Sequence record: MH675927.1
Direction: 5' to 3' (one strand)
Length of the DNA stretch: 64,000 nt
DNA from: Escherichia phage vB_vPM_PD114
The notes under the pieces were generated by a model. That model was not told where the DNA came from and searched no databases. It saw only the letters and a list, made by a program, of their open reading frames with translations. Each line of letters opens with the position of its first letter. The first letter of the stretch is position 1. Below are positions 11,939 to 52,416 of this stretch, one piece after another. The position numbers and the translations under genes are program-made.

Positions 11939-14900
11939 TCAGTGACAAGTTGACCATGAACTACCAACATCGTAACCAGCAGTTAGAGGTACATTAAGAT
12001 TGTAATACTCACCAGCTTTATTAACAGCGATAGATGCTAATTCTCCAGCACGACTGTAGGCTGTAAACCAACCACCTTTCGGAGATTCATGTACGTTAGC
12101 CCAAATCTTGCCAGTACGTTTCTCTTCCTCTTCTTTCCAGGTATTAACTTTATCCAAACATTCTTTATCAATTTTCTTTTGTTCTTCTGGATCATCAACT
12201 TGAGTCCAACCTAAAGATTCTTTAGAGAACCATTTAAAATGCACGAGATCACGAGTTACTTCAAGCTGTGCTTCATCGTGATATGCAATCATTTGTTGAA
12301 CGAATGACTTATTTTTCCAGTCATCAACAAAAAAGTCAACAGCTAATCCTTCTTCTTCGATAAGATCGTCGTAGATAACCATTGCTCTTTTTGCACAAAT
12401 AACACCACCACTCTGGAACAGAGAGTTAAGTATTGCGTGTGCAGATCGTGTAGGTACTTTCCTACCATCAATACCAAGAATGTATTTCTTACCTGTTTTA
12501 ACCCAAAAATCATGCAGACGTTCTTTAAGAAGTGCAAGAGGTTTTGCAGCTTCCCAGAAAGCATCGTATACAAGCTGTCCTGTATACATATCACTACCAA
12601 TAGTTTTTGCTACTTTTGCAGCTTGAGCACCATAAGTAATACCATACTTAACAGATTTAGCAGGGCTTCGTTCAAACTTACGACCAATAGTGTCAGAAAT
12701 ACGTCGAGCCATCATTGTATGAACATCATTAGGTTTTTCCAACAATAGAGCATTACAATATTCGTGTGGTTCCTGCTCGTACCGCCAACAATTCCCTGTA
12801 ATCGTGATGCAGTCTTTCTGACGCATAACCCATGTACCGAGTTCTGTTTGTGGACACCAAACATCTTCTACACCCCATTCTTCAATAGTCAGACTTTGAA
12901 CAGGGATGTGAGAGCGGTTAGCCAACGTTGCCACTTTTACTTTCTGGTCTTTCGTATTGAAGGCTACAGAAATATTACCCCCATGAACCAGGTATGAGGC
13001 AGTTAAGGCTGCTTCAAAAAGTTCTCCTGGGTTCTGCGCCCAGCGCCAAACAGGTTTTTGTTTATGTTTGTGCCAGTAACCATCCGCAATCAAAAAACCT
13101 TCCAAGAAAGCCACACGCTCGGCATGAGACATATTAACTACACGTTCTACCCACGGAACATCCCATTTACCTTGTTGAACAGAAGTTAAACTATTTACTT
13201 GATCTTGTTCCATGTTAAATGGAGCATTACAAATAATGTTATCTCCTGTGCAAAGCTCGGCAGTTGTTCTGACTTTAGGCACATAAGTATTCCCTGTACT
13301 ACGAGTATTAACATACCAACGGTGATCTGCTGTTGCACGATAAGTATGGGATTTTCCTTTAATCTCAAACGTCTTACTATTTTTATAGAAGACCTTACCT
13401 TTTACTTTAGTCCATTCTTTAAGTCCTGTTTCTGGGTTATATCCTAAGATTTCATCCCCTTCTTGTAGATCGTGATAACCAACCCAACCTTTACGGGTTA
13501 GTGCTTGTGCATCCATAGGTACACAGTAATGTGATTCTATTTTTGCCTCAAGAGAATCAAAGTCATAACCAATTTGGAAGTATTTTGGAACTTCTACACC
13601 AAATAAGTTACGCATTTCATATCCGTACAGAGATGTTACACGTGGGATGTTTGCTACTAACCTATGTTTCATACGAGACGTAGCTGCATCGCACGTTGCA
13701 GCAGGGGTTGGTATACGACCATCAGCCCTTACTGCCGCCAGATAACCTTTATCGTAATCCTCTTCATCCTCTTCCCAATCAGCGCCACCCCCTAGAATAG
13801 AGTTCCTACGATGTTTATACGTAAGATACTGCACAATCTGCGTAGCATAAGGAAACTTTTCACCTAGTGCTTCCAAGTTAGGACAAATATCCTTCTCTTG
13901 CCCTTTTGTAAAGGAAGGGTTAGTAAGCACTTTAACACCACGGCCTTTAGCTTTAGCAATACGATCTCTTAGTTTCCATTCCAAAGTTTCTGGTGTGCAC
14001 TCCAGATGATCACATCTATCCTGGCAGAAGTTAGATGCTAACGTTTGATCAACATAGTCACGAATAGCTTTCTCCATTTGTGCTTCATCTTTCTTAATCT
14101 TAGTGCCAGATTTAAGAGTGATATCTTTATCTTTATATTCAGATGGACTCCAACCTAAACCAACTAACCAATTTTTAATATGTGTAGTGTCGTCTAAAGT
14201 AGCAGGTACTGTAGGATCACAAATAGGTTCTTCTGCTGGAATAGGTAGTTTAAACTCCTTACCTAATGCAAATAACCACCAACCATCTTCTTTTTGTACA
14301 AGTTCACCAGAATGTTTCTCTGCAAACTTTATCATGTTACTTGAAGGTTCACCATTCTTTTTAAACTGTAGTTTAGGTGGAATGAATGATTTCAAATAAC
14401 CTTTAGTAGCAGGTTTAGGAGGTAGTACAGGTTCTGCCTCTAAACGACATGCTTCCATTCGAGCATCCAGATCACGAATATTATCTTCTGCTTGTTTCAT
14501 ATTGAAAGCAAAGCCACGGTGCTCTTGACGTGTAATAATATCAGCTACACGTTGTTCTAAGTTAAATGGTTCAGACCACTTATTATAATCACCCCACTCT
14601 TCCATCAAATAACGGAACACTGCGGTGTTAGCTTTGTTATCGTAAATACAGTAATACAGCATATCTGCTGCAAATGTTCTAAATCTTTCAGTTTCAGGGA
14701 TGTTTTTTCTAAAATCAATTTTAACATCCCCTCCAGCTTTCTTAGATAACTCTGCCAGACTATGACCACCGAAGCGATCAGGGTTTAGTGTCTTACTTAA
14801 GATCATAGTATCACAAATTTCAATGTTACTATTACCCCAAGTATTGTACTTAATACTGTAGTTGAGTTTAAAAAATAATTTAATTGCCAGTAAGTCGAAG

Positions 14901-15253
14901 TTAATGATGTTGTGTCCAACTACTTTGGTAATTTTATAGTTTGAATTACCTTTAAATTTACCTGTTCCATTTACAAAATCAGGAAAATCTTTAAGAGGGA
15001 AATGGGTATATTCTAAATGCTCATATTCCTCCAGTCGGTATTCATACTTTCCGTCAGTCTCAATATACGGACGACCATCGAAAAGATATTTATCACCATC
15101 ATGGAAAGCAATAATCTCTCCAGTATCATGACTTTCGCACACAATACAGTGCATTGCAAAACTATCTTTTAAACGATATGGACTTGCCAAGTAATCTACA
15201 CTTTCGTCATTAAGCAAGTTGTTACTTTCAATGTCGAAAGTAAAAGCTCCCAT
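11939..15253 (-). CDS. DNA polymerase, family A (T7 gp5-like), with 3-prime-5-prime exonuclease domain; contains an intein
   Basis: N-terminal exo motifs (FDIES, HCIVCESHD, GGHSLAEL) and C-terminal motifs (KSVKYGITYG, GIDGRKVPTRSAHAILNSLFQSGGVICAK, AYHDEAQLEV) colinear with T7-type polymerases; RBS AGGAGGGAGA. Confidence 0.9.
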   Translation of the reverse strand: MGAFTFDIESNNLLNDESVDYLASPYRLKDSFAMHCIVCESHDTGEIIAFHDGDKYLFDGRPYIETDGKYEYRLEEYEHLEYTHFPLKDFPDFVNGTGKFKGNSNYKITKVVGHNIINFDLLAIKLFFKLNYSIKYNTWGNSNIEICDTMILSKTLNPDRFGGHSLAELSKKAGGDVKIDFRKNIPETERFRTFAADMLYYCIYDNKANTAVFRYLMEEWGDYNKWSEPFNLEQRVADIITRQEHRGFAFNMKQAEDNIRDLDARMEACRLEAEPVLPPKPATKGYLKSFIPPKLQFKKNGEPSSNMIKFAEKHSGELVQKEDGWWLFALGKEFKLPIPAEEPICDPTVPATLDDTTHIKNWLVGLGWSPSEYKDKDITLKSGTKIKKDEAQMEKAIRDYVDQTLASNFCQDRCDHLECTPETLEWKLRDRIAKAKGRGVKVLTNPSFTKGQEKDICPNLEALGEKFPYATQIVQYLTYKHRRNSILGGGADWEEDEEDYDKGYLAAVRADGRIPTPAATCDAATSRMKHRLVANIPRVTSLYGYEMRNLFGVEVPKYFQIGYDFDSLEAKIESHYCVPMDAQALTRKGWVGYHDLQEGDEILGYNPETGLKEWTKVKGKVFYKNSKTFEIKGKSHTYRATADHRWYVNTRSTGNTYVPKVRTTAELCTGDNIICNAPFNMEQDQVNSLTSVQQGKWDVPWVERVVNMSHAERVAFLEGFLIADGYWHKHKQKPVWRWAQNPGELFEAALTASYLVHGGNISVAFNTKDQKVKVATLANRSHIPVQSLTIEEWGVEDVWCPQTELGTWVMRQKDCITITGNCWRYEQEPHEYCNALLLEKPNDVHTMMARRISDTIGRKFERSPAKSVKYGITYGAQAAKVAKTIGSDMYTGQLVYDAFWEAAKPLALLKERLHDFWVKTGKKYILGIDGRKVPTRSAHAILNSLFQSGGVICAKRAMVIYDDLIEEEGLAVDFFVDDWKNKSFVQQMIAYHDEAQLEVTRDLVHFKWFSKESLGWTQVDDPEEQKKIDKECLDKVNTWKEEEEKRTGKIWANVHESPKGGWFTAYSRAGELASIAVNKAGEYYNLNVPLTAGYDVGSSWSTCH
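12791..13525 (-). mobile_element. intein inserted after polymerase motif A (about 245 codons, LAGLIDADG-type endonuclease motif)
   Basis: In-frame block CVPMDAQALT...ITITGN followed by Cys; contains VAFLEGFLIADGYW; flanking extein ...LEAKIESHY|CWRYEQEPHEY... is contiguous relative to T7-type polymerases; terminal dipeptide is GN rather than HN. Confidence 0.7.
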
Positions 15254-23000: not shown

Positions 23001-23597
23001 TTACTCGAACCAATCGTCGCCAGCGCCAAACGCTTTAACTACATCGTAAATATCAAGCCCAGCTTTACCTACACCATATGCTTTCAGTTTCCATTCACTA
23101 TCTTCCCGTACCAGGGAGGCAACGTGGCAAATGGTGTTACCTGCAAGTTCTGGAGCCAAGAAATCAAAGTCCAGCAGTTCAACATTACGTTCATCATCGA
23201 AGATTTTAAGGAAACCTTCGGTAGCATGACCAAGGCGTTTCTTACCCGTTTCGTCATCAATAGTAATTACGAATGCAATTTCCTGTGCTTCAGCAGAGAT
23301 ATTATCCAGTGTAACATCAATCTGCTCCATTTGTCCTACACCGTCACGAACATCTTCACCTGCAAAAGTAGAACGTTCAGGATCAAATTTCTGTGCGTAG
23401 CATACCAGGTGGCGAGGAGACAACAGTTCCGGCAGACCAGATGCATTGTGTCGGCAAATCAGAGCACTAACATCCAGATCCAGTTTTTCGTTAGATTTCC
23501 AAGAGAATTCCAGACGAATACGTTTCAGTGCTGGTGCGATCTTTTTCAGAGAAACTTTTTCGCTAGAACCTTTTTTCAGGGAAATTTTCTGAGTCAT
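23001..23597 (-). CDS. TerD-domain protein (tellurium-resistance TerD/TerZ family)
   Basis: N-terminal ISLKKGSSEKVSLKK and C-terminal ...WKLKAYGVGKAGLDIYDVVKAFGAGDDWFE follow the TerD pattern (acidic core, C-terminal W-K-F-x-A-x-G-x-G); RBS AAGGAGA. Confidence 0.75.
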   Translation of the reverse strand: MTQKISLKKGSSEKVSLKKIAPALKRIRLEFSWKSNEKLDLDVSALICRHNASGLPELLSPRHLVCYAQKFDPERSTFAGEDVRDGVGQMEQIDVTLDNISAEAQEIAFVITIDDETGKKRLGHATEGFLKIFDDERNVELLDFDFLAPELAGNTICHVASLVREDSEWKLKAYGVGKAGLDIYDVVKAFGAGDDWFE

Positions 23598-23670: not shown

Positions 23671-24465
23671 TTACGCTTTTGCTCCGAATTTTTTAACCCA
23701 CTCGCCAAACTCTTCGGATAACAGTTTATCGTAGAGTTCTTCATCAGACAAGGACAAATCTGCAATACCGATAAAATCAACATTATCGTATTCTTTTGCC
23801 AAGTCTTTCAGGAATTTAAAGTTTGCATTACCTACACCAACCATAAACCAGTAAACAGGCGTATTGCGGTGTTTGTTCAGTAAGCTACGTACTGCTGAAG
23901 TATCCATGTTCTCCCCGTCAGTTTGGAAGAAAATCATTGCAGGAGTACGATCAACTTGTGCATCAGTATCTACAACCTGTTCTACAACAGTACGTGTTAC
24001 TTCTACAAGTTCTTTTTTACCAGTTAATTTAGCAAGGAAACCCTTAGCCGGAACTTCTTCATACTCAACGACTTCGCGTGTAATATTTTTCATAGGTACA
24101 CTACCGAAGTATGTATCATAGATCTCTTGCATTACTGGAGCATAAGCAGTACCACCGTTGATGCAAACATTAGACATGCAAGAGCCGACATAATCATCAT
24201 ACACATCAGCCGTTGCAGGAGGCAGTTCAAAAGAAGAACTATTGAAAGCCCACATGTCAATCTGTGCATTGTCATCAAACTTCATACCAAACGGCAGCAG
24301 TTTACCTACAAAATCACTAACAGTGCCATCACGATACAGCTCACACATACTACCCGAAATATCTAAGGCGCTACCGACACGAAGAACAACATCGTTAATC
24401 TTTTTCTTACGCAGAGATACAGTAAGAGTTTCTTGACGTTTTTTAAGACTGATTTTATTGGACAT
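23671..24465 (-). CDS. von Willebrand factor A (vWA) domain protein, TerF/TerY-like
   Basis: MIDAS motif LDISGSM, downstream GGTAYAPV and IFFQTDGEN; short TerD-like N-terminal ISLKK segment; adjacent to TerD. Confidence 0.65.
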   Translation of the reverse strand: MSNKISLKKRQETLTVSLRKKKINDVVLRVGSALDISGSMCELYRDGTVSDFVGKLLPFGMKFDDNAQIDMWAFNSSSFELPPATADVYDDYVGSCMSNVCINGGTAYAPVMQEIYDTYFGSVPMKNITREVVEYEEVPAKGFLAKLTGKKELVEVTRTVVEQVVDTDAQVDRTPAMIFFQTDGENMDTSAVRSLLNKHRNTPVYWFMVGVGNANFKFLKDLAKEYDNVDFIGIADLSLSDEELYDKLLSEEFGEWVKKFGAKA

Positions 24466-25492: not shown

Positions 25493-25725
25493 TACACATT
25501 CTCCTCTTTTACCAATCCCATCGTTGAACTATCAAAACCATCTTTAGAAGAATAGGTATAGACAGAACGTAGTTCTCGCAGGACAGTAAACACATTAGGA
25601 TCATCTAACCAAGCATCCTGGAGGAGAACATAACGATCTTCATTGTCGTACTGGACAGCGATCATAGAACCAGACAGTTTGTAAATTTTAATATTCATAA
25701 TATATTTCTCCTTAAAGTAGACCAC
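25492..25725 (-). CDS. hypothetical protein
   Basis: 77-aa ORF. Confidence 0.35.
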   Translation of the reverse strand: MVYFKEKYIMNIKIYKLSGSMIAVQYDNEDRYVLLQDAWLDDPNVFTVLRELRSVYTYSSKDGFDSSTMGLVKEENV

Positions 25726-26815
25726 GTTTAACAGTTTGAATCATACCATCTTCAAGAGATTGTACTTCTTGAATGTAATCAATACGAGCAGCACGGGCTT
25801 CAGTGTTGATTCGGTTAGTTTCTTCCAACATTTTAACTAAGTTTTCTTGATCGCGACGTAATGTTTCAATATCCAATACTTGACGATTAGCAAGTTGCGT
25901 AGCTTCAATTTGGTTTTGTGCAGCCAGATCACTACCCATTGCAATAGCCGCATTAAATTCATTCAGTACATTGTTCTGTGTATCGGCTGCTTTCTTCTGG
26001 CGTAGACTTTCAATATACATAGAAAAGTTTGCAGAGTAAGCAGGAATAACATTATTCACAATATTACGGGCTGATCGCATCAAACTTGCAGATACTTTCT
26101 GCATACTTTGTACACGTGGCCCCATCTGAACACACAGTAAACGCAAGGCTTTCAGGTCTGCAATACGAATTTCAAGCAGATCCATAGTATCACGAGTACG
26201 TTGACGCTCTTCTACTTCATTTTCAGGTAGTGTATTAAGGCGAACTTCTTCTTTTTCATAAGTAGCTGTTAGAAGCTCTATATCCCTGTTTAAGCTAAGA
26301 GCATATTTTGCAATAGCCTCTTCTAAACGTTGCAGATATCGTAAAGAATCTTCTTCTTTTTTCAAGTCTGTTTGGAGTGTCTTTACCAAACCTTCAATAC
26401 GATTATTGATGGTGTCAAATTCACCAAACAAATCTTCTTTCATACCTAATACTTTCTTAACTAGTTTACCTAAGCCTTTAGATTGTTTAATAGAGTTAGG
26501 ATCAAGTTGCTTTGCTTGCTTAATAAGTGCAGTTAAACGTTCACTCATTTCATCTCCCTGGGATGAACGCTGGTGTTTAAGCACTTCAGCATTAAGGTTA
26601 CGAAGAGTAAGTCCTGCATCAGCACCAACCTGTTCAATCTCTTCACGAGACATTGGAGGCAGCATTTGTACAGGTCGTGCAACAGCAGGGGCATATACAG
26701 GGCTTGCATCCATAGCACTTGGAGCAAACAAAGACTTACTTTTTTCTGTTGTTGCCGTGAATACACTCATTTCAGACGGTTTGCTTTTTACGGCACTAAT
26801 AAAAGGACTGGACAT
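25712..26815 (-). CDS. TelA-like (toxic anion resistance / KlaB family) protein, tentative
   Basis: 367-aa, strongly coiled-coil protein of TelA-like size and composition; GGAGG RBS; sits among TerD/vWA/TerC genes. Confidence 0.5.
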   Translation of the reverse strand: MSSPFISAVKSKPSEMSVFTATTEKSKSLFAPSAMDASPVYAPAVARPVQMLPPMSREEIEQVGADAGLTLRNLNAEVLKHQRSSQGDEMSERLTALIKQAKQLDPNSIKQSKGLGKLVKKVLGMKEDLFGEFDTINNRIEGLVKTLQTDLKKEEDSLRYLQRLEEAIAKYALSLNRDIELLTATYEKEEVRLNTLPENEVEERQRTRDTMDLLEIRIADLKALRLLCVQMGPRVQSMQKVSASLMRSARNIVNNVIPAYSANFSMYIESLRQKKAADTQNNVLNEFNAAIAMGSDLAAQNQIEATQLANRQVLDIETLRRDQENLVKMLEETNRINTEARAARIDYIQEVQSLEDGMIQTVKRGLL

Positions 26816-28593: not shown

Positions 28594-29571
28594 TTAAGCA
28601 ACAGCCTGGTCTTCTTTTTCAGGGAAGATTAAACTTGCAATAACACCCAGCCCCAGAGTACCTAACACAATATACATACTGATCGTCGGATCAATGTGTG
28701 CTGGCAGGAAACTCACTTTTGCGTGCAGAGTTTCTGCAAACGGGTGATACATCAGTTTTACACCCACAAATACCAGGACTACGATAACTGCTTTCTCCAG
28801 ATGAACCAAATATTTCAGTGCAACACTAAGGACAAAGAACAGAGCACGTAGACCTAAAATTGCACACAGCATTGAAGAAAATACAAGCAGAGGTTCTTGT
28901 GTCACTGCAATTACTGCTGGAACAGAGTCTACTGCAAAGATTACGTCAACCATTTCCATTACAAACACACAAACCAATGCAGGAGTTGCTACACGAACAC
29001 CATTTTTGATTGTGAAGAACTTCTCACCATCCATCTGATCAGATACAGGGAACAGCTTACGAACAATGCGAGTAGCCCAATGTTTAGAGTAATCAACTTC
29101 TGCGTCATTATCTCCAGCAAATACCATTTTAGCTGCACAGAAAAGGATGACCGCACCGAAGAAGATATTAACATACCAGCCCAAACTCAACAAGTAAGTA
29201 CCTACTGCTACAAACACACCTCGGAAGACAATCGCACCTGCAATACCCCAAAGTAGAATCTTATGCTGCAAGTGTGTGCTTTTAATACCAAAACTTGCGA
29301 ATACTGCCACAAATACTACTAAGTTATCTACAGAAAGAGATTTCTCCAACACATACCCACTCAAGAACAAGCTCGCAAAATCAGCACCGTGTTGGAAGTA
29401 TACAAAACCATAGTAGGCTAACGATACCCCAATCCAGAAGATTGACCAGCCAATTGCAGATTTAAATGAAATTTCTTTGTTTTCTCTGTGTCCAAAGAAA
29501 TCAATACAAATCGACAAGACTAAAATACCCACTAAAACAACCACATCAATAATTGGGAAACCCAGTTGCAT
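28594..29571 (-). CDS. TerC-family integral membrane protein
   Basis: Multiple TM helices; hallmark EKSLSVDNLVVFVAVF and second repeat DVIFAVDSVPAVIAV (TerC/Alx signature). Confidence 0.8.
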   Translation of the reverse strand: MQLGFPIIDVVVLVGILVLSICIDFFGHRENKEISFKSAIGWSIFWIGVSLAYYGFVYFQHGADFASLFLSGYVLEKSLSVDNLVVFVAVFASFGIKSTHLQHKILLWGIAGAIVFRGVFVAVGTYLLSLGWYVNIFFGAVILFCAAKMVFAGDNDAEVDYSKHWATRIVRKLFPVSDQMDGEKFFTIKNGVRVATPALVCVFVMEMVDVIFAVDSVPAVIAVTQEPLLVFSSMLCAILGLRALFFVLSVALKYLVHLEKAVIVVLVFVGVKLMYHPFAETLHAKVSFLPAHIDPTISMYIVLGTLGLGVIASLIFPEKEDQAVA

Positions 29572-29589: not shown

Positions 29590-29608
29590 GCGGAGGACAA
29601 TCCTCCGC
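29590..29608 (-). other. intergenic stem-loop (GCGGAGGA-CAA-TCCTCCGC)
   Basis: 8-bp GC stem immediately upstream of the TerC RBS. Confidence 0.3.
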
Positions 29609-29911: not shown

Positions 29912-30118
29912 TTATTTGTTAGATTGAAAGATACCACGAAGTACCGCAAGAATGAACGTCACACAGACTACACTCCAAAACGTTACAGGAACATGATGCC
30001 AGTCTAAGCCGATAATGTCAATCATATAGTTGTATGCTAAAAGCAGTAGCCAACTAGGGATTAACACAATCAAGAACACAACAATAAAACAACCTAATAC
30101 TGCTAAAACACCTGCCAT
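29912..30118 (-). CDS. small membrane protein (two TM helices)
   Basis: 68 aa, hydrophobic. Confidence 0.4.
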   Translation of the reverse strand: MAGVLAVLGCFIVVFLIVLIPSWLLLLAYNYMIDIIGLDWHHVPVTFWSVVCVTFILAVLRGIFQSNK

Positions 30119-30127
30119 ACTTTCTCC

Positions 30128-30844
30128 TTATTTCAGTTTGTAAACAATTACATTTAAACCTTTGTTCACTAGAGTTTCTTCGATCATAAGTTTTACAATA
30201 TTCCAAGAACCTCCAGCCAAACCACAACCAAGCATTGGTAAACCTACAATTTTACCGCCTGAAGATACAACATCGTCTCCCATACTATCTAACGCATTGT
30301 AGATAGCTTCATAATTCAGGTCACGCTTACCTTCCTCACGACGACTATAACCATATTGTCCATATAAATTATAAATTGTCAAATTGTTTTCTGTATACTT
30401 AGTAAACGTACCTAATTTTTTATAATCACCACGTTTAGTGGCACAATCTGCTTTAAACGCACCAGGCCACTTGCTTTTAATTTTTGGTGCAATACCACTA
30501 CCCATAGTGCAAAAACAGTTACAGCAGTGTGCTATAGCGTCTATATCGCCTCTCTCGGCTGCTGCTAAAAGATCACCGTATACCTCAATGATACCTGCTG
30601 GATAACTTGTTACAATTTCATCTTCCCAGTACATTTGCTCTACACCACCGATTAGTGCAAAGTTTTGTGTAATGCGATCATCAATATAATTAAGACCTGA
30701 AACATACACAGCATATTCATCCTGTGCTGTAATGCCTTGTACACGAATTCTTAAGACACCATCTTTATCTGTTGCTACACGCCCAAAATCTTTTTCTGTA
30801 ATACTGGTGATAGGATCTCCGAAAGTCGTCACTTTATTAGACAT
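30128..30844 (-). CDS. Macro-domain protein (ADP-ribose binding/processing) with N-terminal extension
   Basis: Start at ATG 30844 (RBS AAAGGGGA); C-terminal half GDIDAIAHCCNCFCTMGSGIAPKIK ... GLPMLGCGLAGGSW matches macro-domain blocks. Confidence 0.6.
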   Translation of the reverse strand: MSNKVTTFGDPITSITEKDFGRVATDKDGVLRIRVQGITAQDEYAVYVSGLNYIDDRITQNFALIGGVEQMYWEDEIVTSYPAGIIEVYGDLLAAAERGDIDAIAHCCNCFCTMGSGIAPKIKSKWPGAFKADCATKRGDYKKLGTFTKYTENNLTIYNLYGQYGYSRREEGKRDLNYEAIYNALDSMGDDVVSSGGKIVGLPMLGCGLAGGSWNIVKLMIEETLVNKGLNVIVYKLK

Positions 30845-31694
30845 AATAATCCCCTTTAACATTAGATTTGTTGATAATGTTGCTTTCAAAAAATTGATGC
30901 AGGAAATCAAAGTTCTCTTTGTATTTTTCAATATTATTGTAACCTTCTGCAAGGCAACCAAAGAACAGTTGTTCTACATAATACAAAGGAAGTTGTGAAA
31001 GTGCAATTTTAAAATCAACTTCGCTTTGACTCATTAGATACTTAATAGGACGAACCAAACATTTAGCATCAGTTTCTTGCTTAATCATTTTAATAAAAGC
31101 TGCCAGGTTATTGATATAGTTGAAGTTAAGTGCAGCTTCGGTGTTGGCTTCTGTACCTTCATACTTTGCAAAGTACAGGAAAAACGTATCGTTTTCAACA
31201 CCTTCTTTGTCTAAAATTTCAATAAGTTTTTCTTCGTGTGTTCCTGTAATATTAACATCATCAATGAAAATCAGAGTTTTATTACCCCAGAAATCACGAT
31301 TGATAGAGAAAGTGTCACCATCGATCAAAGCCTTACGATCTTCTTTGCTAAGAAATCCATAATCATTGATATAACTCACTTTACGATGAACGATATCCCA
31401 CTCTACTGCTTTACCTCCTTTGATAGAGATTAGGTAGTTGAGGTGATCTACAAAATGTTCAGATAACACTGTAGCTGCATTTTTCACATAGTTATATGGA
31501 GATGGAATAACAACAAAACTTTCATTTACTAGTCGTTCTTCATATTTAAAAAAGAAACTTTCAGCCAGAATGCGTCCCATTCTTTTTGCTGCCTGGTTAC
31601 TACCAAACTTTAGTTTGGAATAATCTGCAATGTTAAATTTTGCTTCCTTCAGGTTAGTAAAAGTATTAGCAAAATGTTGAATTTGATTACGCAT
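30837..31694 (-). CDS. phosphoribosyltransferase (type I PRTase) domain protein
   Basis: PRPP-binding motif TLIFIDDVNITGTHEEK (hydrophobic-DD-hydrophobic-x-TG-T); RBS GAGG; overlaps the HAD stop by 8 nt. Confidence 0.6.
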   Translation of the reverse strand: MRNQIQHFANTFTNLKEAKFNIADYSKLKFGSNQAAKRMGRILAESFFFKYEERLVNESFVVIPSPYNYVKNAATVLSEHFVDHLNYLISIKGGKAVEWDIVHRKVSYINDYGFLSKEDRKALIDGDTFSINRDFWGNKTLIFIDDVNITGTHEEKLIEILDKEGVENDTFFLYFAKYEGTEANTEAALNFNYINNLAAFIKMIKQETDAKCLVRPIKYLMSQSEVDFKIALSQLPLYYVEQLFFGCLAEGYNNIEKYKENFDFLHQFFESNIINKSNVKGDYYV

Positions 31695-32343
31695 TAATAA
31701 GTTCCTCTTTTTTAAGTTTAGCCAACAAGTCTTCTGGATTAATAATATGACAGAACTTCATCCCTATGTCAACAGCTTTTCCATCATAAATCAAACTATC
31801 CCCAACGTGTAAAATCTCCTCTGGTGCGAGATCAAACGTTACCATTTCATCAAAAGAGAGTTTAAAAAACCTAGGATCTGGTTTACACAAGCAAAACTCA
31901 TCAGAAAAATGCATAAAGTCAAATGGTAATTTTGTTAAGCCAGAATATACAGCTAAGAAACTACCTGGTACAAAATTAGTATTGCTCTTAATACTCAAAG
32001 AATAGGTTGAACTTAGCTCTTCCAACTTCTTGCAAAGCTCAGGGTTCAATATTGGAGGATGTTTTATAAACATTGCTAAACAGTCTCTTTTTAACCCATC
32101 CACTTTATCAAGATCAATGTTGAAACGAGTAGAAAGTGTTTCCCAAGCGTTCCTAGACGTTCCACAAATGCCTTTTTCTGCTTTTAAATCCAGGAGAGTT
32201 TTTACCTCTTTATATACGGTAGCTGCTTCTGCCTCAGAACAAGAGGCATACTCGGCAATAACCTTGTTGCGTTCTTCTGCATACAAAGGATTAGCAGTAA
32301 TAAGAGTATTCCATACATCAAAAGAAATATGCTTAACAGTCAT
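31687..32343 (-). CDS. HAD-superfamily hydrolase (phosphatase-like)
   Basis: Start at ATG 32343 (RBS GGAGG); motif I ISFDVWNTL and motif IV HVGDSLIYD (GDxxxD). Confidence 0.55.
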   Translation of the reverse strand: MTVKHISFDVWNTLITANPLYAEERNKVIAEYASCSEAEAATVYKEVKTLLDLKAEKGICGTSRNAWETLSTRFNIDLDKVDGLKRDCLAMFIKHPPILNPELCKKLEELSSTYSLSIKSNTNFVPGSFLAVYSGLTKLPFDFMHFSDEFCLCKPDPRFFKLSFDEMVTFDLAPEEILHVGDSLIYDGKAVDIGMKFCHIINPEDLLAKLKKEELINA

Positions 32344-33931: not shown

Positions 33932-34402
33932 TTAGTCAGATTCCCAAATGTTGTCTTTCTTAACCCACATTCGTTGATTATCTGAACCTCTATAACGTTT
34001 CGTTGTTGGTTGATTCATATCATACTTACCATCTATCACTATGTCAACCAGTTTTTTAATTTTCTCTGGAATTTCTTCAAAAAGATATCCTGTATATAAG
34101 ACAATATCTTTTTTGTTTCCAAAACAATCTCTTACCTTCTCAAGAACATACTCTACAGTGTCAATGTTCTCTTTGTCAAGAGGTTCACCACCTAAAACTG
34201 TTAATCCTTTAATGAAAGGTCGAGATAAATCTTCCAAGATAAGATCTAATGTTTCAGCAGTGAACTCTTGTCCGTAATTATACGACCAGGCTTTCTGGTT
34301 AAAGCAGCCACGGCAACCGTGGCTACAACCGCTCACCCACAAAGAGCATCTTACACCGTCACCGTTGAGCATGTCAACAGGTTCATATCCGGCGTAATTC
34401 AA
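33932..34402 (-). CDS. nrdG: anaerobic ribonucleotide reductase activating protein NrdG (radical SAM)
   Basis: MNYAGYEPVDMLNGDGVRCSLWVSGCSHGCRGCFNQ follows the NrdG N-terminus including the CxxxCxxC radical-SAM cluster; TTG start; 4-nt overlap with nrdD stop. Confidence 0.85.
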   Translation of the reverse strand: MNYAGYEPVDMLNGDGVRCSLWVSGCSHGCRGCFNQKAWSYNYGQEFTAETLDLILEDLSRPFIKGLTVLGGEPLDKENIDTVEYVLEKVRDCFGNKKDIVLYTGYLFEEIPEKIKKLVDIVIDGKYDMNQPTTKRYRGSDNQRMWVKKDNIWESD

Positions 34403-35340
34403 AAATGTTTCTCCCTTTCTAGTACCTCTTGCATTTTACCTTTATTATAAGGGCGAGAGTTAGGAGCAGAAAGGTATCCTGACACTCTTCTGATCACAGA
34501 TATGGATTCTTCTTCATGATTACCGCAACTTGGACACTCGAAGCCTTTAGCCGTTGCTTTAAACTCACCATGAAAACCACATTTGAAACACTGATCTACA
34601 GGTTGGTTCACGCCAAAATAAGGAATTTTGTTGTAGGCATAATCTACAAGAGTTTCCAGTGCTTGCAAGTTATTTTTAAGGTTTGGTGTTTCTACATAAC
34701 CTATGTTCCCACCGTTACTAATTTGTGCAAAACCTTCCTCATAATCCCACTTTTGGAACGGGGTAGTGTGCATCCATACAGGTTGATGGAAAGAGTTTGT
34801 CAAGTAGTCACGATCAATAGAACCAGGATAGCGATCATTTAATGCTTTGGCAAATTTATAGCACAAGGATTCTGCTGGTGTTCCATACAAACTAAAAGCT
34901 AAACCAGAACGTTCTTTAAATGTGCCACAGATATCCTTCATATATTGAAGGATGTTTTTACCCATTGCTTTTGGATTGGTGTTACCTGGGTATAAAATCT
35001 CCATAGCTTCTGCTAAACCTACATAACCGATACTAATAGAGGCATAACCACCTTCGAATAGTTTACCAATCTCTTCATTAGCTTCTAGTCGAGCTAAAGC
35101 CCCTTCCATAAACAATGTAGGGTTTTGAGATGCTTTGGTATGTCTAATACGGTTAACACGTAGCATATGTGCCTTATACGCCATCTCCATATGTTGTTCC
35201 AACAGTTCAGTAAATAAGATGCCCTTTTCACGGGACTCTGCTGCAATGATAGGTAAGTTTAAAGAAACTACGCCTAAGTTGAAACGACCATCATATTTTT
35301 CACCTTGCTCTGTTGCATAGTATGACAAGAAACTTCTACA
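34399..35340 (-). CDS. nrdD: anaerobic ribonucleotide reductase NrdD, exon 2
   Basis: C-terminal zinc ribbon CFKCGFHG...CPSCG and glycyl-radical motif RRVSGYL; exon starts TGT AGA (CRSFLSYY) right after the predicted 3-prime splice site. Confidence 0.8.
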   Translation of the reverse strand, partial: CRSFLSYYATEQGEKYDGRFNLGVVSLNLPIIAAESREKGILFTELLEQHMEMAYKAHMLRVNRIRHTKASQNPTLFMEGALARLEANEEIGKLFEGGYASISIGYVGLAEAMEILYPGNTNPKAMGKNILQYMKDICGTFKERSGLAFSLYGTPAESLCYKFAKALNDRYPGSIDRDYLTNSFHQPVWMHTTPFQKWDYEEGFAQISNGGNIGYVETPNLKNNLQALETLVDYAYNKIPYFGVNQPVDQCFKCGFHGEFKATAKGFECPSCGNHEEESISVIRRVSGYLSAPNSRPYNKGKMQEVLEREKHF

Positions 35341-35619
35341 CATTATGTTCAAAGTGGCTCGCAAGGCCACTCCCGCACCATTACGTGCTGCTGCATGTCA
35401 CCATGCAGATCAGACTATATCTTCATGCTTAAAGCATGTCTACCATTTGGGGTGTCATAGGCTTACACCCTACGCTGCTACATTCATCACAGCTAGTCGT
35501 TAGGCATTTCGTAATAGTACCCCCTTCTTCTGTGTTGGGAGTTCTGTTACGTTTAGCACGGGATTGTCTCGTTGAGAGTTCCCCCGTTTAGGCAGATTTT
35601 ACATGAGCAGTTATAGTTT
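35341..35619 (-). ncRNA. group I self-splicing intron (td-like, no internal ORF) interrupting nrdD
   Basis: 279 nt between the two nrdD reading frames; core-like TAAACGGGGGAACTCTCAACGAGACAATCCCGTGCTAAAC and P7 3-prime element AAGATATAGTC; CTGCATG-GTGA-CATGCAG hairpin near the 3-prime end; ends GAACATAATG; exon 1 ends ...ATGGGT. Confidence 0.75.
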
Positions 35620-36477
35620 ACCCATGCTTGTGACGCGACCATCTGAAGATCCTGTAACTTCTTTGTTTAAAGGTACAGAGATAAAATCAGGATAAATGCG
35701 TTCAGCACAACACTCCATTGCCAGTTGCTTCAAATCATAGTTTGGATCGCCAGCTTTCATGTTAACACCATCTTCCAAGAAGAAGATAACTTTAGGAAAC
35801 ACAGGAGTTACCCTATCTTTTCCTAATCCTTGTTTGTGCACCATTAGGTAGTTTTTAGTGATCATTCTACCAAAAGCAGAGGTATCCAAACCTAAACTAA
35901 TTGTTATAAAAGGTGACTGACCATTTACACTCATTAGAGTGTTCACCTGGTAGATTAAAGTTTGCATTGCATCATAGACCTGTTTATCTACCATACGCAT
36001 AGCAATATCATAATCGCCAACATCGGCATATATTTTATTAAAACTTGCTTTAACGTATTGACTAAGCCCAGTATCAACATGTGCACAAGTTTGTCCACCA
36101 TATTGGCTAGAGGCTACTGCTTGAATAATTTGAGTTAGGACAGTAGTTGCTACACCGATAGATTTTGGTTTTTCAATATGTGCATTACCAATACGGAAAC
36201 CGTTCTCAAGCATATCTTGGTAATTTACCAGGCAACAATTAGTTAGAGGTGAGAGTAAATAATCTAAATCGTGAATGTGACCATACCCGCTTTTATGCCA
36301 TTCTGCCAGATCTTCCGGTAAAATATGGGTCATTGCCATGTGCTTGCTCAGAATACCTGCTAGTAAGTCTCGGTGAGTATTAACAATCATTGCAGGTTTG
36401 TTTGCATTTTCACGAGTAAATTCTTCGGATGTTTGTTCGAGGAATCCGATTACATCCTCATATAGTTTTTGGGTCAT
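35620..36477 (-). CDS. nrdD: anaerobic ribonucleotide reductase NrdD, exon 1
   Basis: Start ATG 36477 (RBS GGAGG); reading frame stops 9 nt into the intron; splicing predicted to join ...RVTSMG to CRSFLSYY..., giving a 599-aa product. Confidence 0.8.
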
Positions 36478-36494
36478 TAATCCTCCGTGGAAAA

Positions 36495-36520
36495 TAAAAG
36501 CCAGCATTAAGCTGGCTTTA
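36495..36520 (-). terminator. rho-independent terminator
   Basis: AAAGCCAGC-TTAATG-CTGGCTTT hairpin followed on the minus strand by TATTTTCC; between 36567-37517 and nrdD. Confidence 0.5.
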
Positions 36521-38813: not shown

Positions 38814-41588
38814 TTAGTTTACCAGTTTATTTATGTCTGGTAAAAGATTTATTTCACCTAAGAAATCACCTTCACCTTCCTCTAGCCAACTCTCATATGC
38901 TTGTGCATGATTATAGTTACCATCAAAAGAATCTGCAACAAATTTTTCTACAGTTTTTCGAGATGTGCCAGCGCCAAATACACCAAGTTTAATACCATTG
39001 ATCGGTAAAGTGGTGCTTGTGGGTACTTTCTCTGTTGCAACACGGTTGATATCTATAATCTCCTGTACGGTTGTGTTCCATTGTAAGCATTTAACACAAC
39101 GGGTATGCGCTACATACAGTAGGTTTCGCTCTGCCTCTTCTAGTCCTACCCACTCACCAGTCTTTTTATCATAGTTGGAAGGAAAATCATTAGCAACAAT
39201 AACCTGATCCCACTCCAAACCTTTAGACTTGTGTGCTGTAGTCAATGTGACTTTTGCTGTAGGAGAATTTCTATGCGTTCTAAGTGTATGTGCTATAGTG
39301 TTTGCCTTACCAGAAACTACAATGTTTAACAAGCGTTTAGCATCTGGATCAGCCTCTGCACACTCAACAAATTCATTCCAGTCTGCGTAAGGTAATACAG
39401 TTTCATGTTTTACTTTCTCAATATCTCCTCTCCGAAGAGCATTAACACTATCTACCATAGAGATAAAATCCCTGGTATCTACGTTAATAATAATTTCTTC
39501 CCCATCTGCAATACGATCCATTGCCTCCATAAGCAAGGTTAAATTCTTGCGAAAGATGATAGTGTAAGGTTTTGTATAGTCTACAACATCTGATTTGTAG
39601 CTACCTACTACAGTATCAAAGCCTTTACCAACCAAAGGATGACGCAAAGGTTCTTTATCACTTAAAATCATATTTGCAATGTTTGCCACTTTGGGGCCAA
39701 AACGGAAGCAAGCAGTTAATGGAAGCTCTGCCCCATACTTAGCTGTTTCAATCATCATATTAGAGCTACCTCTAAATTGATAAATGCAGTTGTGGCTAAG
39801 AATTTCATTGCCAAAAAAGTTAGCAGTATCTTCTACTTCAATATCATAATAGATACCCTCACTATCTACAATGTCCACTATCTCTTCTGCCGTTACAGTA
39901 TCACCATCTTTTACTAACACAGACATGCCTTTAAACAAACCCGCTGCCGGAATTAAATTATATTTGGCAGTGTTCACAGAGGACATGCATTCTTTTAAAG
40001 ATGCAAACGGAACTATTTCAAGGATCTTTTGTGCAAAACTCAATGCTTCACGATAAGAATTGAAATATTTACGTACACGGTAACGACCTTCCAATTTAGC
40101 AACACTTACGCTTACACCTGCTTCAATGAGTGAGGCATAGATTGGCATTTCACTTTCTGTCCACTCAAAGCTAACTTGTGTTCCTTTACAACCTTGTGCT
40201 CGCAAAGTCACTGTTAACATTTTTCTTGCATCTACTGCACAATTGATGCTGTGCCAATGTGGATAAGCAAAATGATAGTCTTTATCCTCTAAAAGTTTAA
40301 AACCATTTTGTCCGAATTGTTCAAAGATATTGTTGATCCTTTCTTGATTAATACCGCGTGAACTTGCTTCAAATACACAAGTAGGAATGCCATATTGTAA
40401 ACTGTATGCCATTTCTTTTTCCATAGCAGCTTCACGGTTTTCAACAATATCCAACACCCACAACTTCTGTGCTTTTTCAGAACGTGTACGTTGCCCCAGT
40501 TTAGAAAAACCTTCTTTATCATCGAATTTGTTAGTGATCCCTACTCGGAAACCTAAATCTTTTCTCCACATTAGGTATACCACCATCTGATCATCTTTCA
40601 GAACATAAGGTGAAGCCCAAATACGATGGTTATGTGTCATATCTAAAGTCTTACCTTTAGCAGTAATAATATTCCTACCTTTTGTACGTGTAGATAAAGT
40701 CTTATTTGTTACTTTTCTAAATGTAACTTTACCGTTAGAATAAGACTCTACCTTATCACCGATTTGCAGGTCTTTCATTGTAACCTGACCATTTTCGGTA
40801 TTAAGTACCGTGTTTTCTGACACACATTGGAATTCATCACCAACTACCACAATTTGTTTGGCAGATTTAGCATTCCGCAGAATAGACAAGAATGCAGGGT
40901 TAACATCCTGGAATTCATCCCCAAAAATAATGTCATAACCAAGATCAGCACCAGACAATTCAAACAATTTTACATAGGTGTCATGCGTCATCAAAGTATC
41001 TGTGTTAGGGTCAATGCGCTCTCGCCACAATTGTTTTGCATACTTAACTACTTCTGTAATTAGTTTGTGTTCGTTAATACCTTTTCTTTTAATATCTGCA
41101 AGATGTACACTAGGAAAATGTTTACGGCTGATAAAAGGATCATCCGAAAATTCAAACTTACCTACGGTTTGCTTGATCATTAAACCAATCATAGCACGAG
41201 TTAAAAGTGTTTTCCCTCGTTTATCAATAAGATTATTAATCTTAAATTTCTTTGCTATCTCACTACCTGTACCTGCAACGTTAACATACTGTCCTTCTGG
41301 TCGTGACAGTTTTGCACGTAAACGATGATCCAGGAATTGATAGCAAATGGAATGCAATGTACGGCATTCTACATTTGGTGGCATCTTACGCCGTGCTTCT
41401 TCTGCCATGCTTTTATTGAAAGCTAAGTAAAGAATGCGATCTTCTGTACTGTTAGCCAGCAAATAAAGTGTTGACGTTTTTCCTGATCCAGATTTAGCTT
41501 GGATAGTTAAAAACCGATGATCTGGAAAAGCCTCCTTAATAGCTGTTTGCTCTTCTGTTGGAGTAAAACTCAACTCTTTCTTAGCCAT
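38814..41588 (-). CDS. UvrD/PcrA-like superfamily 1 DNA helicase; contains an intein
   Basis: Walker A AKSGSGKTS, motif II IIFGDEFQD, motif III VVVGDEFQ|...|CIYQFRGSS split by the intein; start at ATG 41588 (RBS AGAGAGG). Confidence 0.85.
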   Translation of the reverse strand: MAKKELSFTPTEEQTAIKEAFPDHRFLTIQAKSGSGKTSTLYLLANSTEDRILYLAFNKSMAEEARRKMPPNVECRTLHSICYQFLDHRLRAKLSRPEGQYVNVAGTGSEIAKKFKINNLIDKRGKTLLTRAMIGLMIKQTVGKFEFSDDPFISRKHFPSVHLADIKRKGINEHKLITEVVKYAKQLWRERIDPNTDTLMTHDTYVKLFELSGADLGYDIIFGDEFQDVNPAFLSILRNAKSAKQIVVVGDEFQCVSENTVLNTENGQVTMKDLQIGDKVESYSNGKVTFRKVTNKTLSTRTKGRNIITAKGKTLDMTHNHRIWASPYVLKDDQMVVYLMWRKDLGFRVGITNKFDDKEGFSKLGQRTRSEKAQKLWVLDIVENREAAMEKEMAYSLQYGIPTCVFEASSRGINQERINNIFEQFGQNGFKLLEDKDYHFAYPHWHSINCAVDARKMLTVTLRAQGCKGTQVSFEWTESEMPIYASLIEAGVSVSVAKLEGRYRVRKYFNSYREALSFAQKILEIVPFASLKECMSSVNTAKYNLIPAAGLFKGMSVLVKDGDTVTAEEIVDIVDSEGIYYDIEVEDTANFFGNEILSHNCIYQFRGSSNMMIETAKYGAELPLTACFRFGPKVANIANMILSDKEPLRHPLVGKGFDTVVGSYKSDVVDYTKPYTIIFRKNLTLLMEAMDRIADGEEIIINVDTRDFISMVDSVNALRRGDIEKVKHETVLPYADWNEFVECAEADPDAKRLLNIVVSGKANTIAHTLRTHRNSPTAKVTLTTAHKSKGLEWDQVIVANDFPSNYDKKTGEWVGLEEAERNLLYVAHTRCVKCLQWNTTVQEIIDINRVATEKVPTSTTLPINGIKLGVFGAGTSRKTVEKFVADSFDGNYNHAQAYESWLEEGEGDFLGEINLLPDINKLVN
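39789..40826 (-). mobile_element. intein in helicase motif III (346 codons)
   Basis: Starts CVSENTVLNTENGQVTMKDLQIGDKV (canonical intein N-terminal block), ends FFGNEILSHN followed by Cys; removal restores VVVGDEFQ-CIYQFRGSS. Confidence 0.75.
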
Positions 41589-50673: not shown

Positions 50674-51864
50674 ATGCCAGCACCAAAATCATGGGAACAA
50701 TATAAAGAAGAGTGTCAACTTCTTGCGAATAAGAAGGGGATTGAGATCCTAGGGTATGTTGAACCGTTTATAGGGGGTAGTACAAAAATGATCCTACGCT
50801 GTAGACAGAAACATGAATGGAATACTTGTAGTATTAAGAATTTCAAGCGCGGTAGAAGTTGTCCTATCTGTGCTGGTAAAAGCAAGACGTTAGAAGATTA
50901 CCTTGCAGAATGCCAGCCATTAGCTGTTGAAAGAGGGATAGAGATTTTAGGTATCAATGGTGAGTTTATAGGTTGTGATACGAAAATGATGCTACGTTGT
51001 AGGCATGGTCACGAATGGAACACATGTAGCTTTGATAATTTTAAACGTGGCAATGGTTGTCTTGTATGTAGGTATGAGAATACAAGGAAGTTACAAACAA
51101 TATCCGACGATCAACACGTTGCAGACTTCTTTTCTACTGGTGTCTTCCCTGAAGGCACTATCTTCACTAACACAGGAAGAAGTAACAAATTTGGAAAAAG
51201 TATTTGGATGATTGAGTGTCCTGTTTGTTCTCACGATGAATATGTGAAAGCTGGTGTATGTAATGGTAAATTTTATTCTAGAGGGTGTCACCTAAAACAA
51301 GGGAGTATCCCTTGCCGTTGTTCTACAAACTACCGTTATACAAAAGATCAGATCACCTACAGGGTAAAAAAGACAGTAGAAAGGAAAGGGTATGTTTGGG
51401 TAGGTTGGATCGGTAAACCGTCTATAAGACCAGGTAAGTTTAAATATCTTTGTCTTATGCATGGGGAACAGATAGGGCGTGCTGATTCCTTATTAAATCA
51501 GGATAGTGGTTGTCCACAATGTGCTGGTCATAGTCAACAGCAATTATATATTAATATTGTTAAAGATAATGATATTATAGTTGCTCTTAAGTTTGGCATA
51601 GCTAAAGATAGCGATAGACGATTAAACAGTCAAAATAGCCGTAATCTGTTTTTTATGGAGCGTATTTGTTTATATGATTTTAGCACAGTGAAACAGTGTA
51701 AGGCTGCTGAAAGAGCTATAAAGAAAAAATTAAAAACTGGTATTTTAACAGCAAGAGAGTTGAAAGACGGTCATACAGAAACAGTAAGTGTTTCTGATTT
51801 GGAAAATCTTCAAAAAATTATTACACAATGTGGTGGCAAATTAGTATACAATAAGGAGGTGTAA
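50674..51864 (+). CDS. zinc-ribbon repeat protein with C-terminal T5orf172/GIY-YIG-like domain (putative DNA-binding or nuclease)
   Basis: Repeated units ...HEWNTCS..NFKRG..CP.C...; C-terminal LYINIVKDNDIIVALKFGIAKDSDRRLNSQNS resembles the T5orf172 motif. Confidence 0.4.
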   Translation: MPAPKSWEQYKEECQLLANKKGIEILGYVEPFIGGSTKMILRCRQKHEWNTCSIKNFKRGRSCPICAGKSKTLEDYLAECQPLAVERGIEILGINGEFIGCDTKMMLRCRHGHEWNTCSFDNFKRGNGCLVCRYENTRKLQTISDDQHVADFFSTGVFPEGTIFTNTGRSNKFGKSIWMIECPVCSHDEYVKAGVCNGKFYSRGCHLKQGSIPCRCSTNYRYTKDQITYRVKKTVERKGYVWVGWIGKPSIRPGKFKYLCLMHGEQIGRADSLLNQDSGCPQCAGHSQQQLYINIVKDNDIIVALKFGIAKDSDRRLNSQNSRNLFFMERICLYDFSTVKQCKAAERAIKKKLKTGILTARELKDGHTETVSVSDLENLQKIITQCGGKLVYNKEV

Positions 51865-52416
51865 ATGCGGATTACTGACAAGTATGTGTTCTTCTTCTCG
51901 GCAAAAGATGAATTTAGCAACTGGTATCTATCATCTTTTATTGAACCTTTAGCTCCCAAGTATAATAATTCTATTACAAGTTCTGTCGAATTTACTTGTG
52001 TGGAACAATATATGATGTGGAGAAAAGCATGTTTGTTTTATGATTACAATATTGCATCTTCTATTTTAACCGGAGATCTAAGATATACAGGAGAAAAAGA
52101 ACAAGCATATTATAAACGACTAGGCAGATCAGTTAAAGATTATGATGAAGATACTTGGACTTCTTTACGGGAGAAGATTGTCAAGCGTGGTTTGTATCTT
52201 AAATACACACAAAATGAAGATCTCAAAAATAAACTTATCGCTTACGCAGATAAGGAGTTCGTAGAGGCAAGCCCCTATGATTCTATTTATGGTATCAAAA
52301 TGGGGATGTGGGATCGTGATGTTGAAAACAAGGATTGTTGGAAAGGACAAAATCTTTTAGGAAAATGGCATACAGACCTTGCTGTTTATCTAAAAACACA
52401 ATCTGATATTTCCTGA
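51865..52416 (+). CDS. NADAR (YbiA/DUF1768) family protein, predicted ADP-ribosyl N-glycosidase
   Basis: VFFFSAKDEFSNW...FTCVEQYMMWRKA...RLGRSV...ASPYDSIYGIKMG...GQNLLGK colinear with the YbiA/NADAR signature; RBS AAGGAGG. Confidence 0.75.
   Translation: MRITDKYVFFFSAKDEFSNWYLSSFIEPLAPKYNNSITSSVEFTCVEQYMMWRKACLFYDYNIASSILTGDLRYTGEKEQAYYKRLGRSVKDYDEDTWTSLREKIVKRGLYLKYTQNEDLKNKLIAYADKEFVEASPYDSIYGIKMGMWDRDVENKDCWKGQNLLGKWHTDLAVYLKTQSDIS

Follow-up and report, generated by a model that had tools for sequence, protein, structure and literature searches.

The subject of this analysis is a run of three adjoining genes in a 64,000-nucleotide stretch of Escherichia phage vB_vPM_PD114 (MH675927.1; the whole stretch is called the window below). 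They encode a hydrolase of the haloacid dehalogenase (HAD) superfamily, a type I phosphoribosyltransferase (PRTase) of the PRTase_3 ("ComF-like") family and a macro-domain protein, here called Macro. The phage belongs to the phi92-like group (Justusliebigvirus, Stephanstirmvirinae), and over 4 kb around the locus it shares 99.3% identity with phages EC.P2 and ECGD1 and 98% with phi92 and EmilieFrey/Bas61. The three genes are read from the minus strand, as are the Ter genes beyond them. We lean towards the view that two functionally separate modules are packed here in one operon-like string, in an early/middle gene block of the phage. HAD and PRTase_3 would be the biosynthetic pair in a phage Ter-type system whose other members are TerC, TelA, a TerF-like vWA protein and TerD. 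Macro would be an ADP-ribose-1''-X hydrolase of a widespread phage macro family, and the most economical reading of its sequence makes it an Adpp-like phosphatase of ADP-ribose (ADPR)-1''-phosphate working with an unlinked NARP1.

The division into two modules follows from which genes travel together. PRTase_3 loci were gathered from metagenomes, IMG/VR, GenBank phages and GTDB genomes, and relatives of the window proteins were marked in each locus. A HAD of the same subfamily immediately precedes PRTase_3, in most cases with an overlap, in every phage locus retrieved, over a span of PRTase identity from 99% to 38% that takes in Xanthomonas XaC1, Rhizobium phages and Caulobacter CcrColossus. 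The same pairing occurs in 20 of the 21 bacterial loci, from Rhizobium/Ensifer, Bacteroidales metagenome-assembled genomes, Peribacteria and Pedococcus. Many distant phage loci also have Ter genes near the pair, and so do those of Bacteroidales, Peribacteria and Pedococcus, in which TerD paralogues flank it. A Pfam census of the 140 nearest neighbours of PRTase_3, taken from 14 distant phage loci, was led by TerD (6), TerC/DUF475 (3), TelA (3) and vWA-TerF (3); TerB was also present, and R2K ATP-grasp genes made up two of the 140. Macro was not among the 25 families listed in this census, and a macro gene was found in none of the 21 bacterial loci. The genes immediately downstream of PRTase_3 in distant phages belong to no recurring family, with one Nudix and one weak DSPc match among them.

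Macro adjoins PRTase only where PRTase identity is at least 65%, that is, in Justusliebigvirus, Phapecoctavirus and Klebsiella/Citrobacter relatives (Stephanstirmvirinae-like phages), and in some of these extra genes separate the two. The macro family is also far more widespread than its neighbour, being present in 2,933 phage records against 156 for PRTase_3 (about 19-fold), mostly unlinked to PRTase_3. Near relatives of the window macro have other surroundings: in Pakpunavirus and Thalassavirus they adjoin NARP1, and in phiTE the neighbouring genes are unrelated. Because of these co-occurrence patterns we regard HAD-PRTase_3 as a conserved unit that belongs with Ter, and Macro as a lineage-specific neighbour. 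The first-pass annotation of the locus had suggested that the three proteins, translated as a unit, could act on ADP-ribose-derived molecules, with Macro coupled to a phosphoribosyl pyrophosphate (PRPP)-binding enzyme and a phosphatase. Read as one dedicated ADP-ribose/PRPP pathway, that proposal is not supported, as the pair is fixed without Macro in distant phages and in bacteria and travels with Ter genes.

The PRTase gene (30837-31694, minus strand) encodes 285 aa and ends with a TAA at 30839-30837. The protein belongs to PRTase_3 (PF15610, E 5.8e-41, 141 bits against the Pfam cut-off of 28.7 bits). Its PRPP-binding motif, LIFIDDVNITGTHE, is intact, and the residues D145 D146 V147 x I149 T150 G151 T152 H153 E154 are invariant in 52 PRTase_3 sequences. 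Even between very different phages, homologues keep about 50% identity, and many of their residues do not vary. The AlphaFold2 (AF2) model has a predicted local distance difference test (pLDDT) score of 92, and in Foldseek it matches the cores of HGXPRT, ComF and PyrR (E ~1e-6) with template modelling (TM) scores of 0.35-0.5, which are low because of a C-terminal helical extension. A search of the PDB returned no sequence relative of the window PRTase. Membership of NARP1, NARP2 or NARP3 was considered for this protein and rejected, as it has a type I fold and no similarity to Nampt, Prs, NadR or PnuC.

The HAD gene (31687-32343, minus strand; 218 aa from the ATG at 32343) matches the Pfam Hydrolase family PF00702 with an E of 2.2e-5 and 25.4 bits, just below the 26.4-bit cut-off, and phrog_14393 with an E of 2.8e-119. 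Weak NCBIfam matches are to HAD-IA and to haloacid dehalogenase type II. The nucleophilic Asp of motif I, the S-N-T of motif II, the K-P of motif III and the G-D-x(4)-D of motif IV are all kept. Motif I reads D-x-W-x-T, and Trp (rarely Tyr) replaces the second Asp in every phage and bacterial member (L003-L045). The second Asp of motif I is the general acid/base of HAD phosphatases. Because this residue is absent and because of the haloacid dehalogenase type II matches, "phosphatase" is an assumption for this protein rather than a result, and HAD may not be a simple phosphatase.

Taken as enzymes of one module, the type I PRTase would join a base-like nucleophile to PRPP, and HAD would then process the phosphoribosyl product, nominally removing its phosphate, to yield a nucleoside-like metabolite that works with membrane-associated Ter proteins. 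The Ter cluster, which the first-pass annotation does not mention, is the natural partner of the pair. Four Ter genes lie 0.5 to 7 kb downstream on the same strand, all within 9 kb. Nearest is a TerC/Alx-family integral membrane protein (28594-29571; PF03741, E 1.2e-38; NCBIfam TIGR03718, E 2.4e-96, above cut-off), followed by a TelA-like protein (25712-26815; PF05816, E 5.1e-34), a vWA protein of the TerF C-terminal type (23671-24465; PF10138, E 1.2e-38) and a TerD-like protein (23001-23597). The last is annotated in ECGD1 as "putative stress protein", its orthologue in the sister-phage locus L007 contains PF02342 TerD, and comparison with it picks out the TerD genes of distant loci. PADLOC returned no match for any of the Ter, PRTase or HAD proteins.

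This arrangement resembles one already proposed from comparative genomics. Anantharaman, Iyer and Aravind reportedly described in 2012 a Ter-associated PRTase and HAD module for a "nucleoside-like metabolite", and PF15610 is one of the PRTase families defined by the Aravind group in its analysis of Ter systems. The window likewise has a PF15610 PRTase_3 paired with HAD beside TerC, TelA, vWA-TerF and TerD. It differs in that the window genes scanned (17.8-33.9 kb) include no TerB and neither the ATP-grasp amidoligase nor the TIM-barrel C-C lyase partner of the full bacterial version, and in having a Macro gene between PRTase and TerC. In phages, a survey of jumbo genomes identified the Ter signal-biosynthesis PRTase and HAD pair in a system that also includes TerD/TerB, TerC, TelA and TerF, and gave Acinetobacter phage ME3 and "related smaller tailed phages" as carriers of the module (Iyer et al. 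2021, PMC7824862). The role suggested in comparative-genomics papers is control of superinfection or of stress. In the literature on Ter systems from 2022 on, we found no experimental work on the Ter PRTase-HAD.

The Macro open reading frame (ORF; 30128-30844, minus strand) encodes 238 aa from its best start, the ATG at 30844-30842. Its macro domain (residues ~86-238; 30128-30589) belongs to the superfamily by PF01661 (residues 106-217, E 2.2e-7, 31.3 bits against a 22-bit cut-off) and matches phrog_335 with an E of 6e-65. The first-pass domain calls thus hold for all three proteins (PF01661 for Macro, PF15610 for PRTase and PF00702/phrog_14393 for HAD), and GenBank records already name the genes as macrodomain, phosphoribosyltransferase and HAD. 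Within the superfamily, the domain falls in the TARG1/BT1257/Poa1p-like class and in the phage Adpp/AdfM family. Profile matches in the PDB are to BT1257 (4e-22), SCO6735, TARG1, DarG and Poa1p, and the fold is the same as in these solved structures. The AF2 model, with a pLDDT of about 90 or higher over residues 90-238, matches TARG1 (E 3e-12, TM 0.87), BT1257 (0.82), Thermus aquaticus DarG (0.80) and Poa1p (~0.7). The catalytic Lys84 and Asp125 of TARG1 align with Gln163 and Ala210, and the TARG1-type catalytic residues are thus missing from the window protein.

The closest characterised relative of Macro is Adpp of Vibrio phage Gary (KNV71_gp137), whose gene lies between those of Adps and Namat. 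In purified form Adpp turns ADPR-1''-phosphate into ADPR, and the three-gene NARP1-AP operon enables NARP1 to overcome aRES, a RES-domain defence (Osterman et al., preprint 10.64898/2026.01.28.702374). The window protein is 41% identical to Gary Adpp over 154 aa (113 bits, E 1e-36), and 48% identical to the macro of Pseudomonas phage EPA1 (Pakpunavirus), which adjoins Adps and Namat. By comparison, identity to T4 Tk.4 is 30% over 139 aa (64 bits, E 1e-17). Macro and Adpp have in common a His, the motifs NxYGQ and GCGLAGGxW and one loop; the loop is absent from T4 Tk.4, which has GAGIGKG where the window protein has GCGLAGG. Macro is closer to Adpp than to AdfM, the name given to Tk.4. The likeliest activity of Macro would accordingly be that of Adpp, ADPR-1''-phosphate to ADPR, through which an unlinked NARP1 (Adps and Namat) could use the product of RES-type NAD+ phosphorolysis. 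A second possible activity would be removal of ADP-ribose from DNA, as in T4 AdfM.

Relatives of this phage do carry NARP1. In EmilieFrey (MZ501063.1) an Adps/Namat pair lies at 139344-142042, with 43% and 39% identity to the Gary enzymes. Macro is at 56.9-57.6 kb in the same genome, and in relatives the NARP1 pair is ~64-82 kb from Macro, outside the window. The NARP1 region is present in 55 phage records at a nucleotide identity of at least 95% to that of EmilieFrey, including phi92 gp107/gp108. The window gene differs from Adpp in this respect: it is not in or beside NARP1, and its neighbours are PRTase_3, HAD, a small membrane protein and Ter genes. The string of genes around it has no Adps-like/Prs-like kinase and no Nampt-like transferase, and its PRTase has no Nampt or Prs match. 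EmilieFrey also encodes a SIR2-family protein (103822-104634). Macro is unlikely to be an O-acetyl-ADPR deacetylase for the phage's own sirtuin. The NARP1 pair, SIR2, Macro and a NADAR protein together are a large NAD/ADP-ribose toolkit of the genus.

The NADAR protein (51865-52416, plus strand; PF08719, E 1e-36) is encoded ~21 kb from Macro and is 99% identical to the Bas61 protein. Bas60-62 are reported to share this NADAR (AdfN-Bas60), and experiments in the same paper show that it neutralises DarT1 (PMC11825919). A validated anti-DarTG1 factor is thus encoded by the phage. The gene immediately before that of NADAR (50674-51864, plus strand) is for a protein of 396 aa in which CapR-homology repeats, a treble-clef zinc finger and a T5orf172 domain are recognised.

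The presence of NADAR bears on the main alternative for Macro, an AdfM-like role on DarT2-modified DNA. T4 Tk.4 owes the name AdfM to a transposon screen and a clean deletion, by which it proved necessary on DarTG2 hosts (HIDEN-SEQ preprint 10.1101/2025.11.20.689424). It is possible, though we give it a clearly smaller share of our confidence, that Macro is mainly such a DNA ADP-ribosylglycohydrolase, which removes DarT2-type thymidine ADP-ribosylation, and that PRTase and HAD are unrelated neighbours. An AdfM-like Macro would complement NADAR (AdfN type), which removes DarT1-type guanine ADP-ribosylation, and T4 too carries both a NADAR and a macro protein. Both Macro and AdfM are stand-alone phage macro proteins, homologous and of the same PHROG-level family, with BT1257 as the best solved relative of each; a tblastn match of the window protein falls on the T4 tk.4 locus. 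DarG models are the sole NCBIfam and PADLOC matches of Macro, and its fold matches DarG macrodomains with a TM of ~0.8. These matches are partial, however. The DarG model NF048014 scores 48.9 bits against its 250-bit cut-off, on the macro part only, and Macro ends with the macro domain, lacks the DarT-binding C-terminal domain and has no DarT-like neighbour at the locus, so identity with DarG itself was ruled out. The greater similarity to Adpp in score, and the indel that Macro shares with it, also count against AdfM. Gln163, at the position of the TARG1 catalytic Lys, might be held against DNA deribosylation as well; this Gln does not vary in the family and is present in T4 Tk.4 too, so the residue does not separate the two readings. 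The Adpp-like and AdfM-like activities need not exclude each other. Our weightings of this and the following alternatives are rough, and the alternatives are not strictly exclusive.

The packing of the genes raises a different alternative. As the first-pass annotation had noted, the HAD stop overlaps the PRTase start, and ORF analysis confirmed that the PRTase stop (30837-30839) and the Macro start (30842-30844) are equally close. On the coding strand the 5' end of the Macro gene reads ATGTCTAA, and the junction has the form ATGnnTAA with an 8-nt ORF overlap. The HAD/PRTase junction has identical geometry (ATGCGTAA at 31694-31687, again ATGnnTAA with 8 nt). Both downstream starts have a good Shine-Dalgarno sequence ahead of them, AAGGGG for Macro (the ATG at 30844-30842 is preceded by AAAGGGGATTATT) and AAGAGGAA for PRTase. 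An alternative Macro start, the ATG at 30862 found in some GenBank records, has no Shine-Dalgarno sequence. Overlaps of this kind are common in these genomes. The annotated 28 kb of EmilieFrey, 98% identical, has 47 adjacent junctions, of which 16 overlap (three by exactly 8 nt) and 32 have a spacing of 15 nt or less. Because 16 of the 47 EmilieFrey junctions overlap, gene overlap at the locus is unremarkable, and a special meaning of the 8-nt overlaps was ruled out on the same count.

The trio sits inside a longer string of seven closely packed genes, namely p67, p51, HAD, PRTase, Macro, p68 and p82 (32716-29649). Its upstream edge is a terminator-like hairpin with a T-rich tail (32744-32723, minus strand; a pattern match only), just past which the string starts. 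Promoter and terminator scans returned counts that did not differ from those of shuffled sequence, and this hairpin was the sole site of note. If the tight string and its two overlaps reflected a shared function, HAD, PRTase and Macro would form one pathway on ADP-ribose- or PRPP-derived molecules, for example a further route of NAD+ reconstitution or the degradation of ADPR-based immune signals. We consider this unlikely. Their adjacency is kept in Justusliebigvirus, Phapecoctavirus and related Klebsiella-type phages, and there is a formal parallel with NARP1-AP, which likewise combines a PRPP-type enzyme with a macro phosphatase; in a Rhizobium phage and in XaC1-like jumbo phages, PRTase_3 also has a Nudix gene nearby. 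The parallel with NARP1 does not extend to the enzymes, as the window PRTase has a type I ComF/HGPRT-like fold with no detectable relation to the Nampt-like Namat, and the string contains no Adps-like kinase. The single pathway is also at odds with the occurrence of HAD-PRTase_3 without Macro in every distant phage locus and all 21 bacterial loci, with a macro family that is for the most part unlinked to PRTase_3, and with the frequency of overlapping ORFs in this genome. The relevance to NAD-linked defences suggested in the first-pass annotation is therefore retained in part: it is plausible for Macro, given 41% identity to Adpp and 30% to AdfM, and is not so for PRTase-HAD.

The N-terminal ~85 aa of Macro (30590-30844, minus strand) form a separate, beta-rich domain in the AF2 model. 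The first roughly 90 residues had been left without a family in the first-pass annotation, and residues 1 to ~85 indeed have no family match, in Pfam or otherwise. The model shows five strands with a pLDDT of 53-72, a confidence too low for fold assignment, and Foldseek aligned the macro part only. The domain has five matches among 1.84 billion representative proteins, of which one, a repetitive 4,335-aa protein, is probably spurious. In the sister phages L007, L012 and L013 the domain heads a 184-188-aa protein encoded between PRTase and a plain 152-162-aa Macro (L007:8457-9011, L012:9227-9793, L013:4027-4590; another such protein is P0243). Identity to the N-terminus of the 184-aa protein of L007 is 27% (E 4e-7). 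The C-terminal half of these four proteins carries MazG-like ExxE/ExxD motifs (ETGECADW...LGECADVI) and matches Pfam MazG weakly (E 0.016). Macro itself carries the domain in the phi92 group and in L008, and Phapecoctavirus-type phages have a plain 157-aa macro without it. Most simply, the fusion in phi92 arose by loss of the MazG half.

This domain swap suggests one more role for Macro, which we think very improbable: that Macro, or the MazG-like protein in sister phages, is a lineage-specific Ter accessory that trims or turns over the nucleotide-like product of PRTase-HAD, with the common N-terminal domain docking either enzyme to the same partner. The same rare domain does stand in the same position on Macro (phi92 group, L008) or on a MazG-like domain (L007, L012, L013), and both proteins are encoded between PRTase and TerC, but the model of the domain is of low confidence, the Phapecoctavirus-type macro does without it, a simple deletion accounts for the fusion, and in no other locus examined does Macro accompany a Ter-linked PRTase_3.

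Several points weigh against two separate modules with an Adpp-like Macro. First, Macro, or the sister-phage MazG-like protein with the same N-terminal domain, keeps its place between PRTase and TerC in phages whose PRTases are only ~65% identical. Shared ancestry explains this kept position, and a functional link between the modules is still conceivable. Second, no member of PRTase_3 or of its HAD partner family has been characterised, and the assignment of the pair to Ter is one of guilt by association. Third, the validated Adpp sits in its own NARP1 operon; here NARP1 would have to act from an unlinked site beyond the window. Fourth, the extra 85-aa N-terminal domain has no counterpart in Adpp or AdfM, and the data on both of those proteins come from preprints. 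Finally, with the second Asp of motif I absent from all HAD members, judging by the alignment, the "phosphatase" chemistry proposed for the pair may be wrong.

We allow a small probability to a more far-reaching possibility, in which HAD-PRTase_3 and Macro (with the sister MazG-like protein), tied by the rare N-terminal domain, belong to an unrecognised phage nucleotide pathway that links Ter to NAD+/ADP-ribose warfare. Its product, newly made or recycled, could for example be a small ribosyl or ADP-ribosyl-derived molecule that supplies NARP1 or serves as a decoy or signal at the Ter membrane complex.

Under the two-module reading, both components are of kinds already known. What is new is the likely split arrangement of an Adpp-like macro and NARP1, the swap of the N-terminal domain and the conserved Trp in the HAD motif. 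If Macro is an unlinked Adpp, then phi92-like phages (BASEL Bas60-62) carry a split NARP1-AP and should resist RES-type NAD+ phosphorolysis. The published working definition of Adpp requires a gene no more than two genes from Adps and Namat (preprint 10.64898/2026.01.28.702374), and operon-based censuses of this kind would under-count the counter-defence. For the other module, phi92-like E. coli phages are a tractable model in which to establish the identity of the Ter "nucleoside-like metabolite". Gene overlap and domain content at the locus are otherwise ordinary for this genome.

Directly downstream of Macro is an ORF for a 68-aa protein with two hydrophobic stretches (29912-30118, minus strand). 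The protein follows the Macro gene in every Stephanstirmvirinae-type locus (L007, L008, L010-L013, L015) and may be part of the Ter block on its membrane side. Further on, the 77-nt gap upstream of TerC contains a perfect 8-bp hairpin, GCGGAGGA-CAA-TCCTCCGC, at 29590-29608, with a promoter-like site (29648-29621) adjoining it. TerC/Alx genes are frequently under riboswitch control. A scan with Rfam gathering thresholds found no riboswitch ahead of TerC, and the hairpin matches no Rfam family.

Four GenBank records labelled "Campylobacter phage" with host C. jejuni (MG065639, MG065645, MG065656 and MG065689) are 98% identical to the window over the 4-kb query. These are probably mislabelled or contaminant genomes.

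Elsewhere in the window, several genes are interrupted or longer than their counterparts. A group I intron (Rfam RF00028, 72.5 bits; 35391-35665, minus strand) interrupts nrdD (anaerobic ribonucleotide reductase), whose exons are at 35611-36507 and 34399-35343; nrdD of EmilieFrey is uninterrupted. The UvrD-type helicase (38814-41588, minus strand) has 924 aa against 578 aa in EmilieFrey, with an intein/Hint-like insertion at about residues 254-600 whose matches to Pfam Intein_splicing and Hint fall just below the cut-offs. The family A DNA polymerase ORF (11939-15253, minus strand) likewise encodes 1,104 aa against the 859 aa annotated in EmilieFrey, a gap in length that suggests a further insertion or a different start.

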